Virus record (IMG/VR): IMGVR_UViG_2721755643_000005
Origin: a virus
Lineage: Duplodnaviria > Heunggongvirae > Uroviricota > Caudoviricetes
DNA length: 44,221 nt
Direction: 5' to 3' (one strand)
In this document: positions 18,807 to 19,114 of the stretch, in pieces
How positions within the stretch are numbered: the stretch's first letter is position 1
Layout: the number at the start of each line of letters is the position of its first letter
Translations under genes and position numbers: made by a program
The notes under the pieces: model-generated
Database searches by the model: none
What the model was told of the DNA's origin: nothing
What the model saw: the letters and a program-made list of their open reading frames with translations, nothing else

Positions 18807-18883
18807 GGCCCTTTAGCTCAGTTGGTCAGAGCGAGCGACTCATAATCGCCAGGTCGCTGGTTCAAGTCCAGCAAGGGCCACCA
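18807..18883 (+). tRNA. tRNA-Ile2 type (anticodon CAT; Met cannot be excluded)
   Basis: Cloverleaf with acceptor GGCCCTT/AAGGGCC, anticodon loop CTCATAA, T-loop GGTTCAAGTCC, 3' CCA; resembles ileX/ileZ. Confidence 0.8.
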
Positions 18884-18884
18884 A

Positions 18885-18960
18885 CCACCACTAGCTCATC
18901 CGGATAGAGCATCAACCTTCTAAGTTGACGGTGCGAGGTTCGAGTCCTCGGTGGTGGGCC
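18885..18960 (+). tRNA. tRNA-Arg (anticodon TCT)
   Basis: Acceptor CCACCAC/GTGGTGG, anticodon stem TCAAC/GTTGA with loop CTTCTAA, T-arm CGAGGTTCGAGTCCTCG, 3' CCA. Confidence 0.75.
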
Positions 18961-18962
18961 AG

Positions 18963-19039
18963 CGCCGACTTAGCTCAGCAGGCAGAGCAACTGACTTGTA
19001 ATCAGTAGGTCACCAGTTCGATTCCGGTAGTCGGCACCA
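18963..19039 (+). tRNA. tRNA-Thr (anticodon TGT) with atypical T-arm
   Basis: Acceptor GCCGACT/AGTCGGC (perfect 7 bp), anticodon stem ACTGA/TCAGT with loop CTTGTAA, 3' CCA; T-loop appears 8 nt. Confidence 0.6.
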
Positions 19040-19042
19040 TAT

Positions 19043-19114
19043 GCGGGCATCGTATAATGGCTATTACCTCAGCCTTACAGGCTGATGATGCGGGTTCGAT
19101 TCCCGCTGCCGCTC
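19043..19114 (+). tRNA. Degenerate tRNA-like element (Val-type anticodon arm, TAC), probably a pseudo-tRNA
   Basis: Canonical T-arm GCGGGTTCGATTCCCGC and anticodon arm TCAGC-CTTACAG-GCTGA, but acceptor strands pair poorly and no CCA. Confidence 0.3.

Follow-up and report, generated by a model that had tools for sequence, protein, structure and literature searches.

What does the transfer RNA (tRNA) gene cluster of a lambdoid prophage contain when no toxin gene stands behind it, where do its members come from, and what might they do? The locus that raises this question lies at positions 18807-19114 (+) of the IMG/VR record IMGVR_UViG_2721755643_000005, referred to below as the window, by which we mean the whole stretch of DNA that was analysed (44,221 nucleotides, nt). 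The window comprises a whole prophage and matches NZ_CM177020.1 (Escherichia coli RMDEC364) from the integrase gene beside ttcA to the last gene of the tail-fibre region; over the tRNA region this RefSeq copy is 99.9% identical to the window. A first-pass annotation had placed here a cluster of three tRNA genes with the anticodons CAT (Ile2-type), TCT (Arg) and TGT (Thr), and had considered the Thr member unexpected. Using ARAGORN and the Rfam tRNA covariance model on the complete window, we recovered four tRNA-like genes, not three, with Rfam scores of 70.5, 56.4, 69.8 and 48.5 bits in the order of their positions (E-values for the whole window from 1.6e-13 to 1.7e-07). ARAGORN assigned the same three anticodons to the first three genes, which are real; the fourth gene, called at 19043-19114 and lying within the same interval, had not been described. 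The best overall explanation, and one that we consider likely, is that a lambdoid prophage carries in this interval a cassette of four tRNA genes, the fourth of which has decayed.

The first three genes have the features of normal tRNA genes, and each encodes its CCA end. Gene 1 (18807-18883, +; 70.5 bits) is identical to K-12 ileX at 69 of 77 positions and to metT/metU at 52 of 77; because the ileX match exceeds that to metT and the RefSeq label in the 99.9%-identical locus is tRNA-Ile, we call this gene Ile2-type and not Met, and by homology it is the counterpart of ileZ of Stx phages. Its acceptor stem reads GGCCCTT/AAGGGCC, with C4 and C5 both paired with G; the pairs C4-G69 and C5-G68 are what we take to be the acceptor-stem determinants by which TilS recognises tRNA-Ile2. 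Gene 2 (18885-18961, +; 56.4 bits) is a tRNA-Arg with the anticodon TCT. Its backbone is common with argN of Stx phages, and its anticodon loop, CTTCTAA, is common with argU, to which it is identical at 54 of 77 positions. Gene 3 (18964-19039, +; 69.8 bits), a tRNA-Thr with the anticodon TGT, is a copy of thrU: 74 of its 76 bases agree with the K-12 gene, both differences are T-to-C changes in the D-loop, and the cloverleaf is intact. The corresponding gene is identical to K-12 thrU at 76 of 76 positions in APEC O1, phage 689R5 and the Stx2f phage phi467. In their anticodon loops, genes 1, 2 and 3 are identical to host ileX, argU and thrU, respectively. In most of 138 sampled loci the three genes are free of stem-breaking changes while their flanks diverge. 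Judged by these features, genes 1 to 3 of the window appear to be intact tRNAs.

Variants of genes 2 and 3 occur elsewhere. The gene-2/argN backbone occurs with the anticodon TCT (18885-18961 of the window), with TTT, labelled Lys, in many prophages, and with TCG in Stx2a phages; examples are found at 1615-1691 of locus L007 (APEC O1), 1595-1671 of L002 (PhiR47_1) and 2595-2671 of L146 (argN of Stx2a_F349). A few loci have abnormal anticodon loops on the same backbone, which ARAGORN labels '???', Leu(taa) or Stop(tta). In gene 3, an allele with GT changed to TC (equivalent to 19005-19006 of the window) breaks the pairs 27:43 and 28:42; it occurs at 1864-1939 of locus L005 and in other copies of the lineage that carries the gene-4 allele described below. 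Since locus L128 contains G27/A28 changes that match the broken allele and would compensate for it, this allele looks like a recombinant of two diverged Thr(TGT) genes.

The fourth gene of the cassette is in relatives a tRNA-Gly with the anticodon TCC, 100% identical to K-12 glyT including the CCA end (APEC O1, 689R5 and phi467). Gene 4 of the window (19043-19117, +) is glyT with three substitutions and one deletion. Two of the substitutions, C35A (19077) and A38G (19080), fall in the anticodon loop and turn CUUCCAA into CUUACAG. The 3' strand of the acceptor stem has lost one C at 19109 (TGCCCGC to TGCCGC), and the terminal CCA has become CAA (19115), with no CCA in either register. The hallmarks of glyT, namely the anticodon UCC, the 7-bp acceptor stem and the U73-CCA end, are all altered. 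ARAGORN and RefSeq read the anticodon as TAC, but the body of the gene is not of the Val type: it is identical to valT at 33 of 76 positions and has only generic tRNA features in common with it, and its discriminator is U or C, depending on the register, against A73 in valT. The software label Val(UAC) is a consequence of the anticodon change, and the deletion of an acceptor-stem base together with the loss of the CCA end makes gene 4 very probably non-functional. Most likely it is a pseudogene of a glyT copy.

Scores and predicted folds point in the same direction. The Rfam score of gene 4 (48.5 bits) is 16 bits lower than the 64.9 bits obtained for glyT and for the intact phage copies. In thermodynamic folding the minimum free energy structure of glyT is the cloverleaf, whereas in that of gene 4 the 5' end pairs with the T-arm instead, and the 1-nt deletion by itself moves the predicted structure off the cloverleaf. 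The best cloverleaf of gene 4, with an acceptor stem of 6 bp and a bulged G, has a predicted energy of -20.4 kcal/mol against -27.9 kcal/mol for the misfold, and the acceptor-stem pair probability is about 0.1, compared with 0.8-1.0 in glyT. In the register chosen by ARAGORN, there are mismatches at 2:71 (C·C) and 3:70 (G·G); depending on the register, the acceptor stem consists of 4 bp with frayed ends or of 6 bp with a bulge.

The changes in gene 4 belong to a larger block of divergence. For more than 400 nt before 19077 the window does not differ from a relative with an intact Gly gene, and from 19077 a diverged block, present only in genomes with the allele labelled Val, extends through the intergenic region to the holin gene. 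The 3' half of gene 4 has 4 changes in 41 nt, comparable to the 7-10% by which the adjoining non-coding block has diverged. A substitution density like that of a neutral flank is what relaxed constraint predicts. A related Gly gene in the Ile-Arg-Gly array of locus L157 keeps the anticodon TCC and has G38, CCA changed to CAA and the same 3' end, TCAAG, as gene 4 of the window, in addition to a G19-to-T change. Because this allele shares G38 and the TCAAG end while retaining TCC, it suggests that the 3' half of gene 4 was acquired from an already drifting lineage through intragenic recombination. Several sister copies of the window's array carry the two anticodon-stem mismatches in gene 3, and one IMG/VR contig has C61T and CCA changed to CTA in gene 2.

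G38 is also found in a diverged family of phage tRNA-Gly(TCC) genes (loci L147-L161, all on IMG/VR contigs), mostly in Asn-Gly arrays, where it is combined with compensatory changes in the acceptor stem. We had considered the C32-G38 pair of gene 4 as a defect in itself and dropped this idea, since alleles with A38G only are found in phage Gly tRNAs that look intact.

To what extent the cassette is shared was assessed with a junction query of 106 nt, which covered the Thr-Gly junction and sequence flanking gene 4, with matches counted at a coverage of at least 80% in 5426 complete E. coli genomes. The phage-type Thr-Gly junction is present in 792 of these genomes, and at least 120 IMG/VR contigs carry the exact junction too, as do representatives of Shigella flexneri and Citrobacter braakii. 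For Stx phages, the tRNA sets that a published survey gives for this region are Met/Arg/Arg, Met/Arg and Arg/Arg, with Thr/Gly next to S in the Stx2f phage phi467 (PMC7366253). Thr(TGT) at this position is neither rare nor new, and the expectation behind the first-pass annotation does not hold. Among 138 junction-bearing loci, the anticodon sets were CAT-TTT-TGT-TCC in 55, CAT-TCT-TGT-TCC in 40, TGT-TCC alone in 22 and CAT-TCT-TGT-TAC in seven, most of the last having been fetched on purpose; a few loci are degenerate. Among E. coli prophages the cassette is commonplace and has been annotated before, and its only unusual member here is the decayed glyT copy.

The Val-labelled allele occurs in seven of the 792 array-bearing genomes, with no intermediates between 99.1% and 95.3% identity to the query, and its sequence does not vary among the copies compared, which come from the seven genomes and from one IMG/VR contig. 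Searches for it gave no matches in the species representatives of GTDB or in the JGI metagenomes, and in IMG/VR a single contig with the same allele; a looser pattern recovered from the JGI metagenomes only an unrelated truncated tRNA beside a tRNA-Tyr. No version of gene 4 with C35A only, with the deletion only or with compensating changes was found in the GTDB species representatives, IMG/VR or the JGI metagenomes. Decayed alleles of genes 2, 3 and 4 occur in several lineages.

The closest known counterpart of the cassette is the ileZ-argN-argO cluster of Stx2 phages of the 933W/Sakai type (Stx2a_F349, AP012530), which occupies the same slot between Q and the lysis genes. The first-pass annotation had stated that Stx-type phages carry Ile/Arg/Arg tRNA genes followed by toxin genes at this position, and the Stx2a phage record indeed has the order Q, ileZ, argN, argO, stxA, stxB. 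Genes 1 and 2 of the window are 88-90% identical to ileZ-argN over 18790-18961 in many Stx phage records. The two arrays differ in that gene 2 of the window has TCT where argN has TCG, the third gene is a copy of thrU instead of argO (Arg TCT), a fourth gene derived from glyT is added, and no stx genes follow. Nearer relatives are the Ile-(Arg or Lys)-Thr-Gly arrays of an APEC O1 prophage, vB_EcoS-689R5 and PhiR47_1 and the Thr-Gly pair of phi467, which share with the window the gene order, spacers, hairpin, terminator and class II holin, the region being 91-95% identical. These relatives, phi467 included, have an intact Gly(TCC) gene equal to glyT, whereas the window has the Val(TAC) allele and the diverged block from 19077.

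The host thrU-tyrU-glyT-thrT operon is the sequence source of genes 3 and 4: its thrU and glyT match the phage copies of the relatives at 100% identity. Judged by these identities, both gene 3 and the gene from which gene 4 decayed come from the host. The phage pair differs from the operon in that its genes lie 3 nt apart, without tyrU, thrT or shared flanks. A recent capture of the host thrU-tyrU-glyT operon was considered and rejected, as no flanking homology extends beyond the mature tRNA boundaries. Decay of single members of late-region prophage tRNA arrays has a parallel in Stx2i prophages, whose arrays hold pseudogenes labelled 'tRNA-pseudo-tRNA-Arg' (PMC13641118). There, another array position and another gene are affected, and the decayed gene of the window differs further in being still annotated as a normal tRNA of another isotype.

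The signals surrounding the array suggest how it could be expressed. A sigma-70-like promoter (18768-18797, +; TTTGCA/TTGCAG, a spacer of 17-18 nt and TATTAT; 9 of 12 matches in the scan) ends 9 nt before gene 1. Five upstream regions, that of a Stx2a phage included, have the elements TTGCA and TATTAT unchanged in sequence that is otherwise highly diverged, and Stx2a_F349 has the same TTGCA...TATTAT promoter-like element upstream of its cluster. In 24 of 32 distinct upstream sequences, representing 112 loci, the motif TTGCA-N17/18-TATTAT is kept while its surroundings diverge. Upstream of this promoter, a hairpin followed by a T-run (18689-18720, +; -18.4 kcal/mol, z-score -5.4, none of 200 shuffled sequences as stable) is a candidate tR' intrinsic terminator; it was absent from the output of a simple terminator scan. 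Directly after gene 4 lies a long predicted hairpin with an 11-bp base, GUCUUUCAGUC/GACUGAAAGAC (19123-19168, +). This hairpin, a possible processing or termination element, has an unchanged stem sequence in five relatives and is missing from the diverged locus L157. Between the array and the holin gene, the terminator scan found the intrinsic terminator GCCCGC-TTTT-GCGGGC followed by seven T (19323-19345, +; -13.7 kcal/mol, z-score -2.6), which is present in relatives too, with variable stem strength. Given the conserved promoter 9 nt upstream and the flanking terminator hairpins, the array appears to form a small, separate transcription unit inside the late region.

In the segment between the Q-like gene and this unit (18607-18720), a promoter-like element is seen together with a short unit that ends at the strong terminator described above; in the relative L006, a true isrK-C4-ORF6N module takes its place. 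A candidate late promoter, TTGCTT-N17-TTCAAT (18607-18635, +), was read from the sequence just after or overlapping the stop codon of the Q-like gene, and in an alignment its columns correspond to the promoter found in true isrK units. Placing the Q-dependent promoter here is only a guess, made from the sequence and from a weak isrK-like match at 18644-18717 (19.9 bits, E-value 0.08), which is below the threshold.

Codon usage was compared between the annotated genes of the 99.9%-identical RefSeq prophage copy and 42 core genes of K-12. The codons ATA, AGA and ACA, for which the first-pass annotation had proposed such a comparison, are enriched in the late genes 2.6-, 3.7- and 2.5-fold and in the early genes 3.9-, 10.4- and 3.7-fold, respectively. 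GGA, the codon matching the ancestral gene 4, is enriched 2.3-fold in late and 2.2-fold in early genes (P <= 2e-5 for these four codons). GTA, the codon of the altered anticodon, is not significantly different (0.94-fold late and 1.0-fold early). This pattern means that the four ancestral anticodons match exactly the A-ending codons over-used by the prophage. Except for GGA, where the two are about equal, enrichment is stronger in early than in late genes. This fits poorly with a purely late-gene role and is consistent with the array having its own sigma-70-like promoter.

Taken together, these observations suggest the following working of the cassette. Transcription of the array would start at its conserved sigma-70-type promoter, probably with additional transcription by Q-modified RNA polymerase that reads from the late promoter through the terminators, and host RNases would process the transcript. 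The lysidine-modified tRNA-Ile2 would read AUA, tRNA-Arg-UCU AGA and tRNA-Thr-UGU ACA, and the three tRNAs would provide additional decoding capacity for A-ending codons that are rare in E. coli and 2.5-10 times commoner in the prophage. The ancestor of gene 4 would have been a tRNA-Gly-UCC reading GGA, a codon enriched in the prophage, which decayed in this rare lineage.

Several points weigh against this reading. The host reference for codon usage consists of 42 K-12 genes and is not the true host, and a published analysis found lambdoid phages with two to three tRNA genes to be no better adapted in codon usage than those without (PMC4631060); the codon-supply benefit is correlative. ARAGORN, Infernal and the RefSeq pipeline all accept gene 4 as a tRNA. 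The allele labelled Val is identical in at least three combinations of flanks, which means that it has persisted through recombination. A38G alone occurs in 13 IMG/VR contigs, in diverged Gly(TCC) genes with compensated acceptor stems (GCGGGTA/TACCCGC). Some of these points would be expected if gene 4 were a working tRNA with a switched anticodon, either charged with Val and reading GUA or retaining Gly identity and inserting Gly at GUA, its 3' end being repaired by RNase BN/Z and the CCA-adding enzyme. C35A would give the A35-C36 determinants of valyl-tRNA synthetase, three programs call a tRNA with the anticodon TAC, G38 is tolerated in other phage Gly tRNAs, and the allele is invariant across different flanks in the seven genomes and the IMG/VR contig. 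Both classes of determinants for glycyl-tRNA synthetase (GlyRS), which we take to be C35 and the first acceptor pairs of E. coli tRNA-Gly, are hit, as a clean identity switch would need. The remainder of the evidence makes such a tRNA improbable. Its acceptor stem is reduced, and its cloverleaf is 7.5 kcal/mol worse than the misfold, in a calculation that leaves out the tertiary contacts and modifications stabilising real tRNAs. It has no CCA, its discriminator is U or C and not A73, and its identity to valT is 33 of 76. The prophage makes no increased use of GTA, whereas it could have profited from the GGA decoder that was lost; no compensated version turned up in the collections searched, and the substitution density is that of the neutral flank. 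A naturally remoulded tRNA-Gly, with its anticodon changed to UAC and its GlyRS determinants lost, serving as a Val decoder or as a GUA-to-Gly mistranslator, is in our judgement slightly more doubtful still. If it were real, then together with the switching between TCT, TTT and TCG on the gene-2 backbone it would make the late-region arrays of lambdoid phages a hotspot of anticodon evolution.

Two further explanations concern the array as a whole, and we consider both of them unlikely. The array could serve mainly in counter-defence, with spare tRNAs replacing host tRNAs that are cut or depleted by anticodon nucleases or toxins. The tRNAs for Lys and Arg are known nuclease targets (PrrC, PARIS, colicin D), and the gene-2 backbone carries in relatives TTT (Lys) and TCT or TCG (Arg); the array's own promoter would also permit expression ahead of late transcription. 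Yet the anticodon loops of genes 1 to 3 are those of the host, and gene 3 differs from thrU at two D-loop bases only, so that the phage copies would not escape a nuclease recognising the host tRNA. Pfam and PHROG matches revealed no defence or anti-defence gene beside the array. Alternatively, the tRNA genes could be neutral passengers, relics of host DNA picked up in aberrant excision or recombination. In keeping with this, the Thr and Gly copies of relatives are identical to host genes, the tRNA genes of Stx phages have been viewed as markers of captured regions (PMC7366253), and decay of genes 2, 3 and 4 has happened in more than one lineage. Passengers would not be expected to behave as genes 1 to 3 do, which lack stem-breaking changes in most of the 138 loci in spite of diverging flanks, nor would their promoter be expected to be conserved or all four ancestral anticodons to match codons over-used by the prophage. 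The absence of host-flank homology outside the mature tRNA boundaries also means that the array is not a recent raw capture. The four-gene cassette with a decayed glyT copy remains the explanation that we favour.

The position of the cassette between Q and the lysis genes and the lack of cargo behind it, both claimed by the first-pass annotation, agree with our results. The array is preceded by DUF1367, YbcO and Q-like genes. The Q-like late antiterminator gene of the DUF1133 family (18063-18617, +; 184 amino acids, aa) matches Pfam DUF1133 (E-value 4e-109), Phage_antitermQ (29.3 bits, cut-off 26) and PHROG 753, 'anti-termination protein Q-like' (E-value 3e-81). The lysis cassette (19406-20582, +) comprises a class II (P21-type) holin at 19406-19621 (Phage_holin_2_1, E-value 9e-35), a lysozyme at 19621-20118 (Phage_lysozyme, 1e-45) and Rz at 20115-20582 (Phage_lysis, 4e-30), and it is also found at the RefSeq twin locus. 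The stretch of 291 nt that separates gene 4 from the holin gene contains no credible gene, with no family-matched open reading frame in the window and no RefSeq coding sequence in the 99.9%-identical locus. An open reading frame of 78 aa at 19057-19293 was considered as cargo and rejected, having no Pfam match and overlapping gene 4. A permissive Rfam scan of 18550-19450 gave, besides the tRNAs, only noise below the threshold.

In the RefSeq twin the prophage is partly degraded, while its structural genes look intact. In that copy IS2 interrupts a DUF977 gene (about 12120-13350 of the window) and recE is truncated (about 3340-5110, -). Between Rz and the small terminase gene, a 198-aa protein is encoded at 20785-21381 (+); it has no Pfam match and a weak PHROG match to anti-repressor Ant/transcriptional regulators (E-value 5e-11), and at this usual post-lysis slot it is possibly a moron. 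Other RNA elements were found outside the late region. A C4 antisense RNA (75.7 bits) and isrK (61.5 bits) at 6411-6599 (-) fall within the 5' part of a RefSeq coding sequence for a Rha-family regulator (5802-6650, -), the start of which may be over-extended. The RalA antitoxin small RNA (207 bits), typical of Rac-type prophages, lies at 1557-1735 (+), and a sok antisense RNA (113 bits) lies at 15176-15350 (+), beside a Hok/Gef family gene.

The mislabelled Val gene is a minor curiosity in a cassette that is itself ordinary and already annotated. What at least seven RefSeq E. coli genomes record as tRNA-Val is, on the reading favoured here, a decayed copy of glyT, and it merits a pseudogene flag or a flag for isotype/anticodon mismatch. 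For the biology of lambdoid phages the locus opens no new question and has background value for studies of late-gene expression and tRNA supply. The tRNA slot of Stx phages is seen as a modular cassette with its own conserved promoter, two members of which are straight copies of host thrU and glyT, and which roughly 15% of complete E. coli genomes carry, for the most part with no toxin genes.

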